Shown here one piece after another: positions 445-30,436 of a stretch of DNA of 32,000 nucleotides. Source of the stretch: Candidatus Annandia pinicola (GTDB lineage: Bacteria; Pseudomonadota; Gammaproteobacteria; Enterobacterales; Enterobacteriaceae_A); the NCBI RefSeq assembly GCF_020541245.1, contig NZ_CP045876.1, forward strand, positions 286,354 through 318,353, written 5' to 3'. How positions within the stretch are numbered: position 1 is the stretch's first letter; the number at the start of each line of letters is the position of its first letter. The notes under the pieces were generated by a model. It saw only the letters and a list, made by a program, of their open reading frames with translations. It did no database searches and was not told the origin of the DNA. The translations under genes were made by a program, and so were the position numbers.

Positions 445-487
445 AAAAATATAGATAGTTTCATTTTTCAAATAAAATTATAATTAT

Positions 488-3484
<2,997 letters not shown>

Positions 3485-3507
3485 AATTTTATTAAAATAT
3501 TATTACA

Positions 3508-3671: not shown

Positions 3672-3748
3672 ATTTATTACAATAAAAATTATAAAATACT
3701 CAATTTTTTTAATAATTTAAGGAGGTAATCCAACCACAGGTTCCCCTA

Positions 3749-3779
<31 letters not shown>

Positions 3780-3844
3780 TGAGTCACAAAGTGGTAAGTT
3801 ATTTCCTTGTTAAGAAGGTTAATTTTCTTACTTCTTTTGCAAAC

Positions 3845-3880
<36 letters not shown>

Positions 3881-4056
3881 TGGAAACATATTCACCGTGG
3901 CATGCTGATCCACGATTACTAGCGATTCCGACTTCGTGGAGTCGAGTTGCAGACTCCAGTCCGAACTAAGACATATTTTATAAGATTGGCTTTATTTTGC
4001 AATATTGCATCTCTTTGTATATGCCATTGTAGCACGTGTGTAGCCCTGGTCATAAG

Positions 4057-4092
<36 letters not shown>

Positions 4093-4154
4093 AGTTTATC
4101 ACTGGCAGTCTCCTTTGAGTTCCTGAATAAATAAAATTCTATGGCAACAAAGAA

Positions 4155-4190
<36 letters not shown>

Positions 4191-4196
4191 TTCACA

Positions 4197-4228
<32 letters not shown>

Positions 4229-4304
4229 CTCACAATTCAAATTGCACTTCTACATTTCTGTAAAATTTTGTGGATGTCAAGACCAGGTAAGGTTTTACGC
4301 GTTG

Positions 4305-4338
<34 letters not shown>

Positions 4339-4463
4339 AGGCCCCCGTCAATTCATTTGAGTTTTAGCCTTGCGACCGTACTCCCCAGGCGGTCGACTTA
4401 ACGCGTTAGCTACAGAGATTAAAAGTCTTGCTTCCAACCTCTTAGTCGACATCGTTTACAGCA

Positions 4464-4494
<31 letters not shown>

Positions 4495-4728
4495 ACCCAT
4501 GCTTTCGCATTTGAGCGTCAGTTATCGTCCAGGAGGCCGCCTTCGCCACTGATATTCCTCTAGATATCTATGCATTTCACCGCTACACCTAGAATTCTAC
4601 CTCCCTCTACGAAACTCTAGCCTATTAGTTTCAAATGCAGTTCCTAAATTAAGTCTAGGGATTTCACATCTGACTTAATAAACCACCTACATGCTCTTTA
4701 CGCCCAGTAATTCCGATTAACGCTAGCA

Positions 4729-4773
<45 letters not shown>

Positions 4774-5091
4774 CTTCTATAGCTAACGTCTGACAATAAA
4801 ATTATTAATTTTATTATCTTCTTATGCTATCGAAAGTACTTTACAACCCTAAGGTCTTCTTCATACACGCGACATAGCTGCATCAGGCTTGCGCCCATTG
4901 TGCAATATTCCCCACTGCTGCCTCCCGTAAGAGTCTGGACCGTATCTCAGTTCCAGTGTGGCTGGTCATCCTCTCAGACCAACTAGAGATCGTGGCCTTG
5001 GTAAGCCTTTACCTTACCAACAAGCTAATCTCGTCTAGGCTCATCTAACAGCGCGAGAGCATATATTATTAAAATTATTCCCGCTTTGGTC

Positions 5092-5424
5092 ATCAATAGT
5101 GATAAATTTATAAAAATTTATATTTTATAAGATAATTTATATTATAAAAAATTATAATATAAATTATATTATTATAAATTTTTTTTTTAAAATGATATTT
5201 ATTTAAATCTTAAACTTAAATATAAATAGTATTATAAAAGTATGTTAAATACTTATTTATAACTATTTAAAAAATATTAATTTTTATAAATCATTAATAT
5301 TTACATTTTAAATAAGATTAAATTTTATATTAATTTTTAGTTACTACAAAATCAATATAAAACTTAAATATTTATAAAAATATAAATCACCATTTATTTT
5401 AAAATATTGACTAAAATAAATATT
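5092..5424 (-). other. Roughly 330-nt A/T-rich insertion (intervening sequence or expansion segment) replacing the helix-9 tetraloop of 16S rRNA
   Basis: E. coli reads GCTAATACCGCATAACGTC-GCAA-GACCAAAG. Here the rRNA strand reads GCTAATACCATATAATGTCAATA[...]TATTGATGACCAAAG, so conserved sequence resumes on both sides. The insert ends are complementary (TCAATA/TATTGA), which extends the helix. By hand count the insert has only about 25 G/C. No ORF is present. Confidence 0.8.
5132..5167. repeat. Perfect 16-bp inverted repeat with a 4-nt loop inside the 16S insertion
   Basis: ATAATTTATATTATAA (5132-5147), then AAAA, then TTATAATATAAATTAT (5152-5167), which is the exact reverse complement. All pairs are A-T. 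Confidence 0.85.
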
Positions 5425-5726
5425 GACATTATATGGTATTAGCTATCGTTTCCAATAGTTATCCCATTCTGCTAGGTAGATTCCTAGATATTACTCACCC
5501 GTTCGCCGCTTTTTGTCATCTAACTTAAACAAAATTCGCACGACTTGCATGTGTTAAGCCTGTCGCTAGCGTTCAATCTGAGCCATGATCAAACTCTTCA
5601 ATTGTAAAAACCCAGATACAAACTTCTAGTATTTTAAAATTTATAAAACAAAAAATTTAAAAATCAAATATATTAAAAATTGTTTTAGCTATTTTCAATA
5701 TATTATCAAATTAAATAGTATAAAAT

Positions 5727-5754
5727 ATAATACTACATTTTAAATAATAGTCAA
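5727..5754 (-). promoter_or_regulatory. Candidate sigma70-type rRNA operon promoter (TTGACT-N16-TATTAT)
   Basis: The minus strand reads AAAAGTTTGACTattatttaaaatgtagTATTAT, about 125 nt upstream of the mature 16S 5' end, with A/T-rich sequence upstream. -10-like hexamers are common in this composition, so the call rests mainly on the rarer TTGAC. Confidence 0.3.
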
Positions 5755-5944
5755 ACTTTTCTTTTATATTCTTAAATCTTGAGGTGTTTTGTTAGAAATA
5801 GAGCAATTTTAATTATTAATTAAAAAAATAAAAATAATTGAAAAAAATAATTATAAAAAAAATATAAAATTAATTTAAAAAAATATATTATTATAAAATA
5901 TAATTTAAAAAAAAATATTATTTAATTTTTATAAAGGAATTATT

Positions 5945-7810
5945 TTGAATAATTTAAATAAATTTGATGTAATAATTATAGGAGCTGGACATGCTGGTAC
6001 AGAAGCAGCTATAGCTTCTAATAATATGAAAAGAAAAACTTTATTAATAACACAAAATATTCACACAATTGGTCAAATGTCATGCAATCCATCTATTGGA
6101 GGAATAGGAAAAAGTCATTTAGTAAAAGAAATAGATTCTCTTGGAGGTTTAATGGCAAAAGCAATAGATTATTCAGGAATTCAATTTAAAATTTTAAATT
6201 ATAGTAAAGGACCTGCAGTAAGATCGACAAGAGCTCAGGCAGATAGAAACTTATATAAAAAAATTATATTTAATACATTAAAAAAAAAAAAATATATTAC
6301 TATTTTAGAATCAGAAGTAACTAAATTAATAATAAAAAAATATAATATTATATCTGGAATAGAAACTAAAAATTATTTAAAATTTTATTCAAATAGTATT
6401 ATATTAACTGTTGGAACATTTTTAAGTGGTAAAATTCACATAGGTTTTAATAAATATAATGGTGGTAGAGAAAATGAATTACCTTCTAATTTATTATCTA
6501 AAAATTTAAATTATTTACCTTTTAGAGTTAGTAGATTAAAAACTGGAACACCTCCAAGAATTGATAAAAATACAATAAATTTTAAAATATTAAAAAAACA
6601 ATATAGTGATATTCCTATACCTAAATTTTCATTTATGGGAAAATTATATAAAAATTTACCTCAAATGCCTTGTTATATAACTAACACTAATAAAAATACT
6701 CATGAAATTATACAAAATTCTTTAATTAATAGTCCTTTATATAATGGTTTAATTAAGGGATTAGGTCCTAGATATTGTCCTTCTATTGAAGATAAAATAA
6801 TTCGTTTTCCCAATCGTGATAAACATCAAATATTTTTAGAACCAGAAGGTTTATTTAGCAATGAAATATATCCTAATGGTATATCTACTAGTTTACCAAT
6901 TAATATTCAAAAAAAATTTATAAATTCAATTAATGGTTTAGAATCAGCTAAAATTACTAGACCTGGTTATGCAATAGAATACAATTTTTTTGATCCTAGA
7001 GATTTATTACTTACTTTAGAAAGTAAACACATAAAAGGTTTATTTTTAGCTGGTCAAATAAATGGTACTACTGGATATGAAGAAGCAGCAGCTCAAGGTT
7101 TATTAGCAGGTATAAATGCATCATTATTAAATATGAACAAAGAACCATGGTATCCTAAAAAATATTATTCTTATATAGGAGTATTAATAGATGATTTATG
7201 TAATTTAGGAACTAAAGAACCTTATAGAATGTTTACATCTAGAGCTGAAAGTAGATTATATTTAAGAGAAGATAATTCTGATTTAAGACTTACAGAAATT
7301 GGATATAAATTAGGATTAATATCAAAAATTCATTGGAAATTATTTAATCAAAAAAAAAATTATATTTATAAAATAAATAATTATATTAATAATAATTTTG
7401 TTTTTTTTAAAAATATTAATATTAAAAATAGAATTTATAAAAAAAAATATTATATAAAAGAATTATTAAAAAGACCAAATTTTAATTATAAAAAAATTAT
7501 TAAATATACTAATTTTTATTTAAAATTTTTTAATTCAGAAATATTAGATCAAATAGAAATACAAATTAAATATAATGGTTATATAAAACTTAAAGATATT
7601 AAAATAATTAATAAAAAAAATAATAATAAATATACTATATTACCTAAAAATGTAAAATATAATAAAATAAAAGGATTATCAGTAGAATTAATTAAAAAAT
7701 TAAAAAAATATAATCCTAAATTAATAGAACAAATTAAAACTATTTCTGGTATTACTCCATCAGCAGTTAAAGCTATTTTGATATATTTAAAAAAAAAATA
7801 TAAAATTTAA
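5945..7810 (+). CDS. mnmG: tRNA uridine-5-carboxymethylaminomethyl modification enzyme MnmG (GidA)
   Basis: 621-aa ORF with a TTG start preceded by AAGGA. Motifs: FAD-binding [49 protein letters not shown], and [19 protein letters not shown]. The C-terminal third is strongly recoded. Confidence 0.95.
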
Positions 7811-17490: not shown

Positions 17491-17847
17491 TTAATTTATT
17501 TTATTTTTTTTTTTTTTATTTTTTTTCCATAATTTATTTAAATTATTAAATATAATATTATTAGAAAACTTAGTTATACATTTTCTTATTATAACAATAT
17601 AATCTTTTTTTTTACAAATATTTTGATTTAATCTAAAACTTTCTTTTACATACCTTTTTATTTTATTTCTATCATGAGAATATTTAACATTTTTTTTTGA
17701 AATTATAATACCTAACCTAGAATAATTAAATTTATTATTTTTTGTATATAATAATATACATGATGAATAAAAAAAATATATTTTTTTAAAATTATTTTTA
17801 AAATCTTTAAATTTATTTATTTTTTGTTTTTTTTTGAATTTATACAT
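17491..17847 (-). CDS. rnpA: RNase P protein component
   Basis: 118-aa basic protein with the RNR-type motif DRNKIKRYVKESFR, located immediately downstream of rpmH. Confidence 0.82.
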   Translation of the reverse strand: MYKFKKKQKINKFKDFKNNFKKIYFFYSSCILLYTKNNKFNYSRLGIIISKKNVKYSHDRNKIKRYVKESFRLNQNICKKKDYIVIIRKCITKFSNNIIFNNLNKLWKKNKKKKNKIN

Positions 17848-17854
17848 AAATATT

Positions 17855-17998
17855 TTACCTAGAAGAAACTGTTAAATGAATTCTACCTTTATTTCTACGT
17901 CTTGATATTATAGCTCTACCTTTTTTAGTTGACATTCTAGAACGAAATCCATGTAAACGTATTTTTTTAATTATTGAAGGTTGAAATGTACGTTTCAT
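17855..17998 (-). CDS. rpmH: 50S ribosomal protein L34
   Basis: This gene is not in the ORF track because it is too short. My translation of the minus strand is [47 protein letters not shown], a clear L34 (MKRTFQPS...GFR...GR). Confidence 0.92.
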
Positions 17999-18122
17999 AA
18001 TTTAATTTTTCCTTTTATGTTAATTTATAAATAAAATGTTAAAATAATTATAAATAATTTATTTAAAAATTAAAATTTATAAATACATAATTTTAATTTT
18101 TTTTAATAATGTATATTAAAAT

Positions 18123-19223
18123 ATGAAATTTGTTATAATGCGTGAAAATTTATTAGAACCATTACAAAAAATTACTAATATATGTATAAATAAATCTAAT
18201 TTGCCTATATTAAATAACATTTTAATAAAATTAAAAAAAAATATATTATTTTTAATTTCTCATAATTTAGAAATTGAAATTTCAACAAAAATAAAATTAT
18301 GTAAAATAATTAAGGAAGGGGAAATAAGTGTATCTGCTAAAAAATTTTTAGAGATTTGTCGAAATTTTTCTTATAATGATATAATGGAAATTAGTTTAAC
18401 AAATAATAGAATGACAATAAAAAATAATTATATTAGTTTTGTTTTATCTGTATTACCTTCAAATTTATTTCCTAATTTTGTTAATAATAAATTTTTATTA
18501 AAATTTAATTTATTAAATTTTACTTTAATAAAATTAATTGAGTCAACTCAATTTTCTATGGGTATAAAAGATGCTAGATATTATATTAATGGGATGTTAA
18601 TTAAGTCTAAAAAAAATATTATGCATACAGTAACTACAGATGGATATAGAATATCTTTATGTAATTATAAAAATTTAAATAAAATACCAGATTTTTCTAT
18701 AATTATTCCTAGAAAAAGCATAATAGAATTAATAAAATTATTAAAAAAAAAAAAAAATAGTATTATTAATATTAAAATTAATATTAATAGTATATCATTT
18801 AAATTTAAAAAAACATTATTTACTACAAAATTAATAAATGGTAGTTTTCCTTCATATAATACTATATTTAATAAAAAATATAATTATTTTATTGAATTTA
18901 ATAATAATATATTAAAAACAGCTATTAAAAGGGTTTCTATTATTTCTAATAAAAATAATATCATTTATATGAATATAAAAAAAAACTATGCTATTATTAT
19001 ATCTAAAAACGAAATAGAAGAAATAGCAAAGGAAAAAATTAAAATAAATTATTTTGGTAATAATTTTAAAATAGCTTTTAATGCAAAATATATAATAGAT
19101 ATATTAAATTTTTTTAAATGTGGTTTTGTTAATTTTTTATTAAATGATGATATTTCTAGTATTAAAATAGAAAATAAAGATAATCCTTATAATTCTTATA
19201 TTGTAATGCCAATTAAATTATAA
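18123..19223 (+). CDS. dnaN: DNA polymerase III beta sliding clamp
   Basis: 366 aa, the same length as E. coli. Motifs: MKFVIMRENLLEPLQKI, TDGYRIS, KLINGSFPSYN, and C-terminal YIVMPIKL. Confidence 0.92.
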   Translation: MKFVIMRENLLEPLQKITNICINKSNLPILNNILIKLKKNILFLISHNLEIEISTKIKLCKIIKEGEISVSAKKFLEICRNFSYNDIMEISLTNNRMTIKNNYISFVLSVLPSNLFPNFVNNKFLLKFNLLNFTLIKLIESTQFSMGIKDARYYINGMLIKSKKNIMHTVTTDGYRISLCNYKNLNKIPDFSIIIPRKSIIELIKLLKKKKNSIINIKININSISFKFKKTLFTTKLINGSFPSYNTIFNKKYNYFIEFNNNILKTAIKRVSIISNKNNIIYMNIKKNYAIIISKNEIEEIAKEKIKINYFGNNFKIAFNAKYIIDILNFFKCGFVNFLLNDDISSIKIENKDNPYNSYIVMPIKL

Positions 19224-23988: not shown

Positions 23989-24031
23989 TTTTTTAAAAAA
24001 AATAAATATTAATTTTTTTTTTTTAAAATTA

Positions 24032-24057
24032 CCCTTTTTATCATGAGGTAAAAAGGG
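24032..24057 (+). terminator. Candidate stem-loop terminator downstream of groEL
   Basis: CCCTTTTTA (24032-24040), loop TCATGAGG, then TAAAAAGGG (24049-24057), giving a perfect 9-bp stem 44 nt after the groEL stop. No clean U-run follows it (AATTGATAATAA), so its function is uncertain. Confidence 0.35.
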
Positions 24058-24582
24058 AATTGATAATAATAAAATTTTAAAGATTATAAAAATTTTATAG
24101 GAAATGTCAATTAAAAACTTAAAATAGAAAAAAATAATAATTAAAAATTAACCTTATAATATTGAAAATATTAAGTTTGTAACCTTCCTGTTAAAGGAAA
24201 TCATTTATTAGTATAAAGTTACTTAATTTATTAAATAAAAAAATAATAAAAAAAATAATTTTGAACATATTAAAATTTTAAAAAAAAATTATAAAAAATA
24301 AAAGTTTTGGATAAAATTAAAAATAGAGTGTAATATTGTTATGTGTAATAATTTTCCTATAGATATAAATATTTCTAATTTTATAAATTTATTAGTTATT
24401 AAAACTATAAGATAAAAAAATATTCTATATCAAATAATATTAAATATGTATTTTTAGGTAACAATTTAAATATTAAAGTTCATTTATTTATAAAAAAAAA
24501 TGATATAATTAAAGTAAACGCTCGTTCAATAAAATATGTTTTTTTTATTAAAAATAAAAAAATTATAAATATTATATAATTT

Positions 24583-27423
24583 TTATTTATTATTTTTTAT
24601 TTGTAGAAATAAAAAAGGTATATCAATATTATTATCTTTAAAAGAATTTAAAATTAACATATTTAATGAATGTTTTAATAATTTTCTATTTTTTAATTTA
24701 GAAGTATAAATTCTCATTTCAAAAATTTGAATACCTTGTTTAAAATCTACTAGAAAAGCTTCTGGATTAGGTTTATTTAATACATAATTACATTTTTTAG
24801 AAGAATCTATTAAAATTTTGATTATTTTATTACTATCAATTTTAATCGGTGCCGTAATATTTAAAACAATTCTTGTTATAGAATCCGATAGAGACCAATT
24901 AATAAATTGTTCAGTTATAAAAGATTTATTTGGTATAATAACTTCTCTTCTATTACAATCTATAATAGTTGTGGCTCTTGTATTAATACTTTTTATATTA
25001 CCAGTAAAATTTTTAATTGTAACAGTATCATTAATTCTTATTGGTTTCTCAAATAATATTATTAAACCAGATATAAAATTTGCAAATATTTCTTGTAAAC
25101 CAAAACCCAATCCTAAACCTAAAGCAGTAAATAACCATTTTAATTTATTTAATTTTATTTTTAATAATGAAACAATAATAAATATTCCAAAAAAAAACAA
25201 AAATTTTTTAGTTAAATTTATAATAGCATATTTTGTATTTGGCATTAAATCTAAATATTTTAATATAAAAAGTTCTAATAATATAGGTATATTACTAACT
25301 AATTGAAATGTAATTAATAATGTTAATATTATTAATAATATTGATTTTAATTTAATAAATTTAAAATTTTTATAGTCAATAAATTTTATATTTTTAATTA
25401 TATAAAATAATTTTATATTTTCAATAAAATTTAAAATAATATATATCTTAAACCAAATTAAATAAATCATAATTAAACTAATAATAATTAAAGTAAATTT
25501 AATTAATCTAATTATTTTAATTTTTGTATTCTTTATATTAATAATATTACTTTTTTTATATAATTTATTATTATTATTTACATCTTTTTTATTTTCCATA
25601 ATACTATGTATATCTTTAATTTTATTTGAATCTATAACATATTTAATAGCATAAAAGTATTTTAATATTATCATTTTTTTTATTATAAAAAATATTATTA
25701 AATTTAAAAACCAAATCAATAATGATGATAAAAGTTTTATTAATAAATCTTTTATAGCATATGTATATCCATATAATATTAATATTACAAATAATAAAGA
25801 TAAAAAAAACAATAAATTCCATAAGATTTGATTAATGATAAAATTTATTTTTATATTTTTATTTAAATAAAGAGGTATGTTAGTTTTTTTTAAATTAAAT
25901 ATAAATACACTTACATATAAACAAATAAAAATTAAAAAAAATCTATTAAAATCTTTAATAAAATTAAAATTTTTTAAAAAAAATATTAATATAAGTAAAA
26001 TAAAAAACGGAACAATAAATCTTAAAAAAAATAAATAATGATATTTTTTTTTTTTAAAATTATAAATAATTTTTTTTATTTTTTTTATTATTTTTTTATT
26101 TTTATTTAATATATAAAAACATATTTGTTTTATTAAAAACATTATAGAAAATATTTTTAGCATTGTAATAACAATAATTTTATATTTATCTTTAATATAT
26201 AAATTTTCAAAATAATAAATAAAATCCCATAATAAAATTAATGTTATAGATAAAAAAAAAATAACAAAAATAATATTATATAATAATAAAAAATTATATT
26301 TAAATAATGAATAAATGTTATTCAAAAAAAAATAATTATTTTTTTTAGCAAATTTTAAAATAAAATTTATATAAAAAATCATTAATATTATAATTAATAT
26401 TATATTAATTATAAAATTAATATTAAAAAAACATATGTATTTTAATAAAAATATTGTTATAATTAAAAAATTATAAATGTAAAGTAAATAATTATAATTA
26501 ATATATGATTTATTTGATATCCAAAATAAATATCTATAGTTACAATCTTTTATTATAAGTAATAATATATTTAATTTTATATATTGTGATTTTAATTTTA
26601 CTAAATTAATATTTAAATATTTATAATTTTTTAATAATAATTTAATATTTTTTCTTTTTATTTTTATTTGATAATTTAAAATTTTATTTTTATTAAATTT
26701 ATTATTTTTATTAAAATAATAAAAATTATTTTTATAATTTAACTTTACTAATTTTATTTTATTTATAATTAAATTATTTTTATTAATTATATATTTTAAA
26801 TATAATAATTTTAATATTTTATCTTTAATTTTTAATTTAGAAAAATTAAAACTATTTATAAATTTAAAACAATTAATTATATTATGAAATATTTTATATA
26901 ATTTTTTTATAATTAAATTATTATTATAAATATATTTATTATTTTTTATATTATAATAATATTGTTGCATTATTTTTTTTATAAGCTTGTTATTATTATA
27001 ATATATTTTTTTTTTAAATGAACAATAATTACTATTGATTATTATATTTTTATATTCAATTTTTTTATTATAATATTCAGTATATATTTCTCTTTTATAA
27101 ATATTAATTTTTTTTTCTTTATTTTTTATATTTAAATTTATTTTAAAATGATAATTTTTATTTTTTTTTTTTTTTATTAAATCTATTTTTTTTAATAATT
27201 TTTTATTAAGATAATAATATTTTTTTTTAATATTTTTAAATAAGTATTTTTTATTTATATTATTTTTTGTATTATAAATATATATATTACATATATTTAT
27301 AAATTTATTTTTAATAATTTTATCATGAATATTAAATTTAAATATATTAATATTTAATAAAAAATTAAATATTAAATTAAATATAAGAAAATATATAATG
27401 AAATTTATTTTTTTTTCAATCAT
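24583..27423 (-). CDS. MscS-family mechanosensitive channel of the large MscK (KefA/AefA) / MscM (YjeP) type
   Basis: 946-aa ORF. The C-terminal roughly 230 aa carry a recognisable MscS core (LGLGLGFGLQEIFANFISGLIILFEKPIRINDTVTI...GNIKSINTRATTIIDCNRREVIIPNKSFITEQFINWS). Upstream lie many hydrophobic segments, and a long N/K/I/Y-rich N-terminal region matches the large periplasmic-domain architecture. I cannot decide between MscK and MscM orthology by eye. Confidence 0.78.
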   Translation of the reverse strand: MIEKKINFIIYFLIFNLIFNFLLNINIFKFNIHDKIIKNKFINICNIYIYNTKNNINKKYLFKNIKKKYYYLNKKLLKKIDLIKKKKNKNYHFKINLNIKNKEKKINIYKREIYTEYYNKKIEYKNIIINSNYCSFKKKIYYNNNKLIKKIMQQYYYNIKNNKYIYNNNLIIKKLYKIFHNIINCFKFINSFNFSKLKIKDKILKLLYLKYIINKNNLIINKIKLVKLNYKNNFYYFNKNNKFNKNKILNYQIKIKRKNIKLLLKNYKYLNINLVKLKSQYIKLNILLLIIKDCNYRYLFWISNKSYINYNYLLYIYNFLIITIFLLKYICFFNINFIINIILIIILMIFYINFILKFAKKNNYFFLNNIYSLFKYNFLLLYNIIFVIFFLSITLILLWDFIYYFENLYIKDKYKIIVITMLKIFSIMFLIKQICFYILNKNKKIIKKIKKIIYNFKKKKYHYLFFLRFIVPFFILLILIFFLKNFNFIKDFNRFFLIFICLYVSVFIFNLKKTNIPLYLNKNIKINFIINQILWNLLFFLSLLFVILILYGYTYAIKDLLIKLLSSLLIWFLNLIIFFIIKKMIILKYFYAIKYVIDSNKIKDIHSIMENKKDVNNNNKLYKKSNIINIKNTKIKIIRLIKFTLIIISLIMIYLIWFKIYIILNFIENIKLFYIIKNIKFIDYKNFKFIKLKSILLIILTLLITFQLVSNIPILLELFILKYLDLMPNTKYAIINLTKKFLFFFGIFIIVSLLKIKLNKLKWLFTALGLGLGFGLQEIFANFISGLIILFEKPIRINDTVTIKNFTGNIKSINTRATTIIDCNRREVIIPNKSFITEQFINWSLSDSITRIVLNITAPIKIDSNKIIKILIDSSKKCNYVLNKPNPEAFLVDFKQGIQIFEMRIYTSKLKNRKLLKHSLNMLILNSFKDNNIDIPFLFLQIKNNK

Positions 27424-29305: not shown

Positions 29306-30436
29306 ATGTTTAGTAATTATAAAATAGCTGTTTTACCAGGTGATGGTATTGGTCCAGAAGTTATGAAACAAGTATATAAAATTATATATTTAATAAATAA
29401 AATATTTAAATTAAATATAATTACTAAAGAATATAAAATTGGTGGAATAGCTATTGATGATATAAATATACCGTTACCTTTAAATACTTTATTAGGTTGT
29501 TTAAAATCTAATGCAATTTTATTAGGATCAGTTGGAGGAAATAGATGGGATAATTTGCCATCAAAAAAAAAACCAGAAATAGGATCGTTATTATTTTTAC
29601 GTAAATATTTTAAACTTTTTAATAATTTAAGACCATCAAAATTATATTTAGGATTAGAATATTTGTGTCCTTTAAAAAAAGAAATTTATAATAAAGGTTT
29701 GGATATTTTATGTGTAAGAGAATTAATTAGTGGAATTTATTTTGGAAAACCTAAAGGATATAATGGTTATAATAAATTAAAATATGCTTTTGATACTGAA
29801 ATATACTATAAATTTGAAATTGAGAAAATTGCTCATGTTGCTTTTAAAAAGGCTTTAGAAAGAAAACTTAAAGTTACTTCGGTTGATAAATCTAATGTTT
29901 TACAATCTTCTATATTATGGAGAAAAACTGTTTGCAATATATCTAAACTATATCCTAAAGTAGAATTAAATCATATGTATATAGATAATATTACTATGCA
30001 ATTAATTAAAAATCCATCACAATTTGATGTTATATTGTGTTCTAATTTATTTGGAGATATAATTTCAGATGAATGTGCTATGATTTCTGGTTCTATAGGT
30101 ATGTTACCTTCTGCAAGTTTAAATGAAAATAAATTTGGAATATATGAACCAGCTGGTGGTTCTGCTCCAGATATTTCAGGTAAAAATATAGCTAATCCTA
30201 TAGCTCAAATATTATCTTTTTCAATGTTATTAAAATATAGTTTTAATTTAGTAAAAGAATCTGATATAATAGATAATTCTATAAATAAAGTTTTAAAATA
30301 TGGATATAAAACTAAAGATTTAACATTAAATAGTAAAGATTTTATTAGTACTAGTGAAATTGGGTCTTTAATTTCTTGTTTTATAATTAAGGAAAATAAT
30401 ATTAATGAGCAAAACACTATACGAAAAAATATATAA
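29306..30436 (+). CDS. leuB: 3-isopropylmalate dehydrogenase
   Basis: 376 aa with [13 protein letters not shown] and [26 protein letters not shown]. The 3' end overlaps leuC by 32 nt. Confidence 0.95.

Follow-up and report, generated by a model that had tools for sequence, protein, structure and literature searches.

The window, that is, the whole stretch of 32,000 nt of the Candidatus Annandia pinicola genome analysed here, contains a complete rRNA operon on its minus strand, which Rfam and ARAGORN resolve into the genes for 16S rRNA (3718-5604), tRNA-Ile, tRNA-Ala, 23S rRNA (482-3486) and 5S rRNA (327-442). Downstream of the operon, on the plus strand, are found mnmG, atpBEFHAGDC, mnmE, yidC, rnpA, dnaN, gyrB, groES/EL, a gene encoding an MscK-like channel and leuABC. 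Annandia is an ancient “senior” bacteriome symbiont of adelgids, and A. pinicola lives in Pineus; the MnmG of the window is 100% identical to the NCBI protein of Ca. Annandia pinicola and 81% identical to that of Ca. Annandia adelgestsuga, and GroEL points to the same organism. The 16S gene, the first of the operon, is 1887 nt long and matches the bacterial small-subunit model RF00177 (SSU_rRNA_bacteria) over its full length (model positions 1-1533, 1389.7 bits). This full-length match, together with the conserved core regions, indicates that the single 16S gene copy of Annandia is functional. A promoter scan revealed TTGACT-16-TATTAT (5727-5754, minus strand), probably the rrn promoter, within a block upstream of the 16S gene that is conserved in all three Annandia genomes considered here. 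A 68-aa ORF lying within the 16S gene gave no match in an exact-protein look-up, nor did MnmG or AtpD.

An earlier, sequence-only reading of this DNA had put the length of the 16S gene at about 1886 nt and nearly all of its excess at one point, which corresponds to the GCAA tetraloop of E. coli helix 9, with 5092 and 5424 as the limits. Our alignments agree with it on each count. A single insert of 333 nt (5092-5424, minus strand), standing in place of the tetraloop (E. coli positions 187-190), is responsible for about 95% of the extra length. It is supported by cmscan, MAFFT, base counts and the GC profile, and its limits as first read are exact. Along the RNA strand, ...AUAAU is followed by GUC (5427-5425), the 5′ strand of the helix-9 stem and the equivalent of E. 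coli G184-C186, then by the 333 nt (5424 to 5092), then by GAC (5091-5089), the 3′ strand of the stem and the equivalent of G191-C193, and finally by the conserved CAAAG; both strands of the stem were assigned from the sequence and from the pairing given by cmscan. In E. coli, positions 184-193 read GUCGCAAGAC, i.e., helix 9 including its GCAA tetraloop. Alignment to a covariance model, which the sequence-only reading had proposed as a check, fixes one insertion within helix 9: cmscan leaves one unaligned block, of 323 nt, within the helix at model positions 178-200, and when the gene is aligned to E. coli rrsH by MAFFT, 329 extra nt follow E. coli position 187, all the remaining indels of the gene being 11 nt or shorter. 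The possibility that the extra bases are spread over several variable regions is excluded by both alignments. Relative to both the Rfam model and E. coli, a helix tip is thus replaced by extra sequence, as is characteristic of intervening sequences (IVSs). The insert also has attributes of an expansion segment: it is located at the tip of a helix that is peripheral and variable, its insertion point is conserved, and its length differs between lineages.

Smaller additions are present in other rRNA loops. The helix-10 loop carries a small AT-rich enlargement (5061-5081, minus strand) of 11-21 nt according to the aligner, which appears as insert columns in cmscan and for which MAFFT sets 11 nt after E. 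coli position 204. A small AT-rich enlargement of the helix-10 loop is found in A. adelgestsuga as well. The insertions of the 23S gene are all small, as first read, and measure 31, 39, 7 and 24 nt. AT-rich additions to rRNA loops other than that of helix 9 (the loop of helix 10 and several 23S loops) range from 6 to 41 nt, and the helix-9 insert looks like the extreme case of this general trend.

The insert itself is not a discovery of this work, since it has been in print from 2017 as a “GC-poor 5′ insertion”. The unusual length of the 16S gene was noted as well. Von Dohlen et al. 2017 found this gene to be longer by about 380 bp in the A. pinicola of Pineus similis and by about 750 bp in A. 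adelgestsuga, with a G+C content of 8-10% in the insertion and with the two species not alignable (PMC5468457), and Weglarz et al. 2018 gave lengths of 2,149 bp for the 16S and 2,974 bp for the 23S of A. adelgestsuga (PMC6022629). The words “helix”, “secondary structure” and “intervening” are absent from the former paper, which thus does not address the fate of the RNA (PMC5468457). What is added here is the placement of the insert in the helix-9 tetraloop, its conserved termini, its hairpin architecture, and tests of its rate of change and of its structure.

The base counts of the insert (A149, U159, G15, C10) amount to 25 G/C, the very number estimated in the sequence-only reading, and to 92.5% A+U, and in 100-nt windows across the insert the GC content lies between 3 and 10%. 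The insert is rich in repeats. The repeat search recovered the 10-nt direct repeat that had been noticed at 5402-5411 and 5418-5427, for which a composition-based estimate gives a chance expectation below 1e-3. It corresponds to a local 16-nt duplication at the 5′ boundary (5402-5427, minus strand; repeat family D3), with GUCAAUAUUU at 5427-5418 and again at 5411-5402. The first copy of this duplication takes in the GUC of helix 9 itself, and the second copy is partly preserved both in a second Annandia from Pineus (AUCAAUAUUU) and in A. adelgestsuga. Tandem-repeat arrays lie within 5104-5339, where TRF returns nine rows, and the repeat search as a whole yielded the families D1-D3 and 39 inverted-repeat pairs.

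Two further Annandia genomes allow the comparison with related symbionts that the sequence-only reading had suggested. The second Pineus Annandia is represented by Logan contig L004, an independent assembly from a separate Pineus sample, with an MnmG 91% identical to that of the window; A. adelgestsuga is represented by its complete genome, CP026513.1. The second Pineus Annandia has a homologous insert of 337 nt at the identical insertion point, and the 16S gene of A. adelgestsuga, 2155 nt in length, has 602-604 nt inserted at the same nucleotide. The insert is fixed in the Annandia lineage, with lengths of 333, 337 and 604 nt, and its presence at the same nucleotide in three of the three Annandia genomes examined contradicts the sporadic distribution typical of IVSs. 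The insertion point is thus conserved and the length and the interior vary. Between A. pinicola and A. adelgestsuga recognisable conservation is confined to the 5′ terminus, GUCAAURUUUAUUUUA, and the 3′ terminus, AAAUUUUUAUAAAU...GACC. Homology of the interior of these two inserts was considered and rejected: any offset aligns at about 65%, which is the noise expected of A/T composition, and only the termini can therefore be called homologous between the genera. As the insertion point is common to A. pinicola, the second Pineus Annandia and A. adelgestsuga, it predates the split between Pineus and Adelges, a divergence stated to be older than 87 My (PMC8692619). The only matches that MnmG retrieved from genome contigs were in Stammera (52% identity) and in one unrelated MAG, and in both cases no rRNA operon is close by; in the next-closest relatives (contigs L007-L010, MnmG 59-62% identical) no rRNA operon adjoins mnmG, and a scan of JGI metagenomes for the insert boundary motif returned no match.

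On the rRNA-sense strand the insert folds with −71.5 kcal/mol (z −6.0 relative to dinucleotide shuffles), and on the antisense strand with −54.5 kcal/mol (z −3.7). Five AT-rich spacers of the same window (6-17% G+C, the insert being taken at about 9%), which served as controls, gave z values from −2.3 to +1.5 on either strand. The insert of the second Pineus Annandia reaches a z of −7.2. The fold computed for the Pineus insert is far more stable than base composition predicts, and we regard it as suggestive, not conclusive, that in the Pineus symbionts the insert is a folded RNA on the rRNA strand. The fold of the A. adelgestsuga insert is weaker and, with z −2.9 on the sense strand and −4.7 on the antisense strand, shows no specificity for the former. 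Self-contained helices, as are typical of expansion segments, are accordingly found in the folds of the two Pineus symbionts and are weaker in A. adelgestsuga.

Independent folds of the two Pineus inserts agree on about seven local hairpins, namely those designated A to F here and a short terminal one; the two folds disagree on long-range pairs, which are for this reason not trusted. All hairpins are given on the minus strand. Hairpin A (5390-5422), of about 12 bp, pairs AUAUUUAUUUUAG with UUAAAAUAAAU in the folds and the alignment and adjoins the 5′ boundary; clear conservation of the insert in A. adelgestsuga is limited to the 5′ arm of this hairpin, AAURUUUAUUUUA. Hairpin B (5318-5367), with 23 bp, an apex of GUAGUAACUA and −14.2 kcal/mol, is predicted in both Pineus Annandia, and of its 23 pairs two are switched between G.U and A.U and three are broken in the second genome. 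Hairpin C (5272-5302) comprises 10 bp in the window, whereas its counterpart in the second Pineus Annandia is perfect over 14 bp; it includes one double change from A-U to U-A. Hairpin D (5223-5269), of 19 bp with an internal loop, shows one double change from G-C to A-U. Hairpin E (5200-5222) has 10 bp in the folds. The largest, hairpin F (5112-5183), which is outlined by the folds, by inverted repeats and by repeat family D2, totals 31 bp at −18.6 kcal/mol. The perfect 16-bp palindrome with a UUUU loop at 5132-5167, which the sequence-only reading had picked out, forms its core and is reproduced by the folds; in the second Pineus Annandia the core comprises 18 bp, one of them a G.U pair, and five extra loop bases.

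Nearly all G residues of the insert are predicted to be paired (13 of 15), eight of them with U. When the pairs predicted for the window are transferred to the second Pineus Annandia, 112 of the 121 are kept; the 21 that changed comprise 10 switches between A-U and G.U, two double changes that leave the bases paired, and nine broken pairs. In permutation tests, 11 pairs were broken where 15.5 were expected, and reciprocally 14 where 18.4 were expected, with P about 0.05 each. Covariation, for which only two alignable sequences are available, was not significant, since 135 of 500 shuffles reached the observed value.

The rate of change was estimated between the window and the second Pineus Annandia. 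The helix-9 insert has accumulated 0.105 substitutions per site plus nine indel events, compared to 0.017-0.026 substitutions per site in the flanking 16S core, 0.075-0.146 in the intergenic spacers, 0.08-0.11 at third codon positions and 0.15-0.18 at the four-fold sites of mnmG and atpB. Since this rate is similar to that of the spacers and the third codon positions, the primary sequence of the insert is close to unconstrained.

We propose that the insert is an AT-rich expansion, specific to this lineage, of the hairpin loop of helix 9 within a single functional 16S gene, that it arose by slippage and that it is probably retained; we give this account as a whole an even chance of being correct. 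The surface loop would have grown through replication slippage along with local or inverted duplication, under an extreme A+T mutational bias and weak selection in a small and ancient symbiont genome. The tandem arrays, the direct and inverted repeats and the duplicated GUC of helix 9 are the signature that points to such growth. The insert would necessarily be transcribed as part of the pre-16S rRNA, and it would then most likely stay in the mature 30S subunit as a bundle of hairpins, perhaps nicked, instead of being precisely excised. The hairpins would hold the A/U-rich RNA compact and clear of ribosome assembly. At the foot of the 30S body the tip of helix 9 is exposed to solvent, and eukaryotic 18S rRNA carries expansion segment ES3S at this site; extra RNA there need not disturb decoding. 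The ribosomal protein bS20 binds close to helix 9, and three of the 54 ribosomal proteins are lacking in Annandia. The fate of the RNA is the weakest step of this account. That the whole insert of 333-604 nt, with about 92-94% A/U, is kept in the Annandia 30S subunit, independently of eukaryotic ES3S, and has been maintained for more than 87 My, is a claim to which we assign a little less than an even chance. Among bacterial small-subunit rRNAs, no retained expansion of greater size is known to us.

The foremost rival is that the insert is an IVS, removed from the pre-16S rRNA by RNase III or another endonuclease, which would leave a mature 16S rRNA of two pieces, of about 185 nt and about 1370 nt, that proteins and what is left of the pairing would keep together within the subunit. 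We deem this a serious possibility, although we would place it clearly below an even chance. The replacement of a helix tip is what IVSs do, and the lack of any ORF in the insert, which the sequence-only reading had reported and which holds for ORFs of at least 25 aa, is shared with many IVSs. Internal duplexes of 16-23 bp are present that could serve as RNase III substrates, and the A/U-rich linkers between them are plausible nuclease targets of a kind typical for endonucleases. The near-neutral sequence change and the doubling of length between the genera are equally expected of a discarded spacer, and as such they count against retention. There are also precedents in the endosymbionts of Paramecium and of the Rickettsiales lineage: Springer et al. 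in 1993 reportedly dealt with a Paramecium endosymbiont whose 16S rRNA is fragmented, and Baker et al. in 2003 reportedly with IVSs in the 16S genes of endosymbionts of the Rickettsiales lineage. To our knowledge, wherever a large 16S insert of a proteobacterium was examined by experiment, as in Caedibacter caryophilus, Helicobacter canis and Campylobacter species, it proved to be excised, resulting in fragmented rRNA.

The ends of the insert would speak mildly against such excision. The sequence-only reading held that complementary termini, TCAATA/TATTGA, extend helix 9. The complementarity stands (5426-5421 with 5098-5093), but it lies three bases off the canonical GUC/GAC register, and the extension of the helix is weak and restricted to the Pineus symbionts. 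In the canonical register these have three pairs and five more with two mismatches, the perfect 6-bp register being an alternative, and in A. adelgestsuga the ends form just three canonical pairs, the TCAATA/TATTGA complementarity being absent. The ends are therefore not predicted to form a long duplex, and both the MFE and the centroid folds favour local hairpins over their pairing. A leader-trailer stem around the 16S gene, of the type that RNase III processes, was sought and was no better than in shuffled controls. The gene for RNase III itself, rnc, was not found by tblastn (queries: rnc, era and lepB of E. coli) in the window or in contigs L001-L004, which represent less than 10% of the genome, and rnc is not mentioned in the main texts of the Annandia genome papers. 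Furthermore, the insert is fixed across three genomes, not patchy, and hairpins and G.U-preserving changes occur throughout it, beyond its base. The lack of a long end duplex, the fixation in the lineage, the structure throughout the insert and the lack of a leader-trailer stem are sequence features that would weigh mildly against a classical IVS of the RNase III type. Judging by these features, we favour a retained domain resembling an expansion segment, at about even probability, over an excised IVS, to which we assign a distinctly lower one.

A degenerate self-splicing intron or another mobile element, removed by splicing that rejoins the 16S exons, would also account for a large insert, but we consider it highly improbable. 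The insert is only 7.5% G+C, too low for the G-C-rich helices expected in catalytic intron cores, and no such core was recognised: both strands of 5085-5430 were without a match at E≤10 to Rfam, intron families included. With no ORF of 25 aa or longer, neither an endonuclease nor a reverse transcriptase nor a transposase is encoded, and no target-site duplication flanks the insert, the 10-nt direct repeat sitting within its 5′ end. Plasmid matches obtained by BLAST (Stammera, Clostridioides, Aliarcobacter) had 71-75% identity over at most 59% of the query and were rejected as noise of AT composition. In favour of an intron it can be said that large inserts in the rRNA genes of some bacteria are introns, sometimes with homing endonucleases (PMC11270868).

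Least probable of all, to the point of being negligible, is that the insert is an artefact of assembly or of a chimera, or that the 16S gene is decaying and no longer functional, since, even though AT-rich repeats are prone to misassembly and an earlier 16S entry of Annandia pinicola, KC764418, proved to be chimeric (PMC5468457), the artefact that the sequence-only reading had named as its possible undoing is excluded by two further assemblies (the independent Logan assembly, with the same insertion point and homologous sequence, and the complete A. adelgestsuga genome, with an insert at the same point) and by published products of PCR on this region with specific primers (von Dohlen et al. 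2017, PMC5468457), and since a non-functional gene is at odds with the match to the full bacterial SSU model and with the conserved core regions.

If the helix-9 expansion is retained, as we propose, Annandia would have a bacterial ribosome with an expansion segment of eukaryotic size and almost purely of A/U, located at the site of ES3S. It would represent a natural case of the birth of an expansion segment by mutational bias, not by function, in a genome of 0.33-0.35 Mb, and would thus bear on the origin of expansion segments, that is, on neutral growth at tolerated surface loops versus recruitment for a function. Retention would also bear on the limits of ribosome degeneration in an organelle-like symbiont. 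If the insert is excised instead, the result would be a fragmented 16S rRNA in an insect nutritional symbiont, with the break in helix 9. The insert also accounts for the mis-handling of the Annandia 16S gene by universal 16S primers and automated pipelines, and a chimeric GenBank entry has been traced to the region of the insert (PMC5468457).

Among the known systems, bacterial IVSs resemble the Annandia insert in that they replace a conserved helix tip, are transcribed with the rRNA and are often non-coding. Classical IVSs form a long stem from both of their ends, are cut by RNase III, are patchily distributed among strains or operons, and are usually 100-250 nt long and of ordinary composition; they occur in 23S helices 25 and 45, as in Salmonella and Campylobacter, and in the 16S rRNA of Caedibacter, Helicobacter and Campylobacter. 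The 16S IVSs we are aware of reside in helix 6 or helix 10, and we know of none described in helix 9. In contrast to the classical IVSs, the Annandia insert has no long terminal stem, has been fixed in its lineage for more than 87 My, measures 333-604 nt and consists of 92-94% A+U. Two reports name 23S helices 25 and 45 as sites of IVSs (PMC2801512, PMC4990558), and the IVS in helix 45 of the Coxiella 23S rRNA is given as 428 nt.

Closer in phylogeny, symbionts of psyllids and lice that group with Annandia are described as showing “larger deletions and insertions” in 16S alignments, in which the 5′ region is hypervariable (PMC11842425); unlike in Annandia, no single insert of 330-600 nt is described in these reports. 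A literature search on 16S inserts in Blochmannia and Nardonella found nothing relevant.

The other system with which the insert is to be compared is eukaryotic ES3S. Both are located on helix 9, and in both the point of insertion is conserved and the length variable. Extra RNA in ES3S can be accommodated, since in yeast this segment tolerates inserted oligonucleotide tags (PMC4931108). ES3S is a retained segment, generally rich in G+C, that pairs with ES6S, whereas the Annandia insert, which may be retained, is almost pure A/U, has no ES6S partner and would be of independent, bacterial origin.

The helix-9 insert (the 333-nt AT-rich segment of the 16S rRNA gene) looks like the extreme case of a trend of AT-rich additions in rRNA loops, of which the 23S rRNA gene holds smaller-scale cases. 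Three AT-rich insertions lie on the minus strand: 31 nt (window 3315-3345), 39 nt (3062-3100) and 24 nt (593-616), located after E. coli 23S positions 139, 358 and 2795, respectively. The 31-nt and 39-nt insertions are also present in A. adelgestsuga, the 24-nt one exclusively in A. pinicola. The cmscan alignment also shows a deletion in the 23S rRNA, near model positions 273-315.

The complementarity between the 16S leader and trailer (in the flanks of the gene at 3673-3717 and 5605-5760) reached -12.0 kcal/mol, against -13.2 +/- 2.5 kcal/mol for shuffled sequences, and so did not exceed the controls; the leader and trailer of A. adelgestsuga gave the same outcome. A classical RNase III processing stem around the Annandia 16S rRNA seems to be missing. 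In the 16S-mnmG spacer, the sole stretch that is nearly identical across the three Annandia sequences (A. pinicola, a second Annandia from Pineus and A. adelgestsuga) is a block at about 5700-5760, which contains a promoter-like site, TTGACT-16-TATTAT (5727-5754, minus strand). This site is probably the rrn promoter. The neighboring mnmG starts at 5945 with a TTG codon.

dnaA is absent from its usual site, where it would have dnaN on one side and the rnpA end of the rpmH-rnpA pair on the other. All that separates rnpA (17491-17847, minus strand) from dnaN (18123-19223, plus strand) is a 275-nt AT-rich spacer (17848-18122). This absence agrees with a published account of A. adelgestsuga, in which most replication-initiation genes are lost and dnaB alone is kept.

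Elsewhere in the window, groEL is separated from the gene of a mechanosensitive-channel (MscK/KefA-like) protein by an unusually long, AT-rich spacer of 594 nt (23989-24582), the first 340 nt of which, on the plus strand, fold slightly more stably than shuffled sequences (z -2.3). This spacer may be the remnant of a decayed gene, or else hold regulatory sequence. The channel protein itself (946 aa; 24583-27423, minus strand) is a large membrane protein for so reduced a symbiont to retain, the genome being about 0.35 Mb in size and holding about 290 protein-coding genes. The reading frames of leuB and leuC overlap by 32 nt (30405-30436).

In the loci of the next-closest relatives (L007-L010, with MnmG 59-62% identical) no rRNA operon adjoins mnmG. 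For those co-symbionts of psyllids and lice that group with Annandia, a hypervariable 5' region of the 16S rRNA, with "larger deletions and insertions", has been reported (PMC11842425); growth of helix 9 or helix 10 may therefore extend beyond Annandia.
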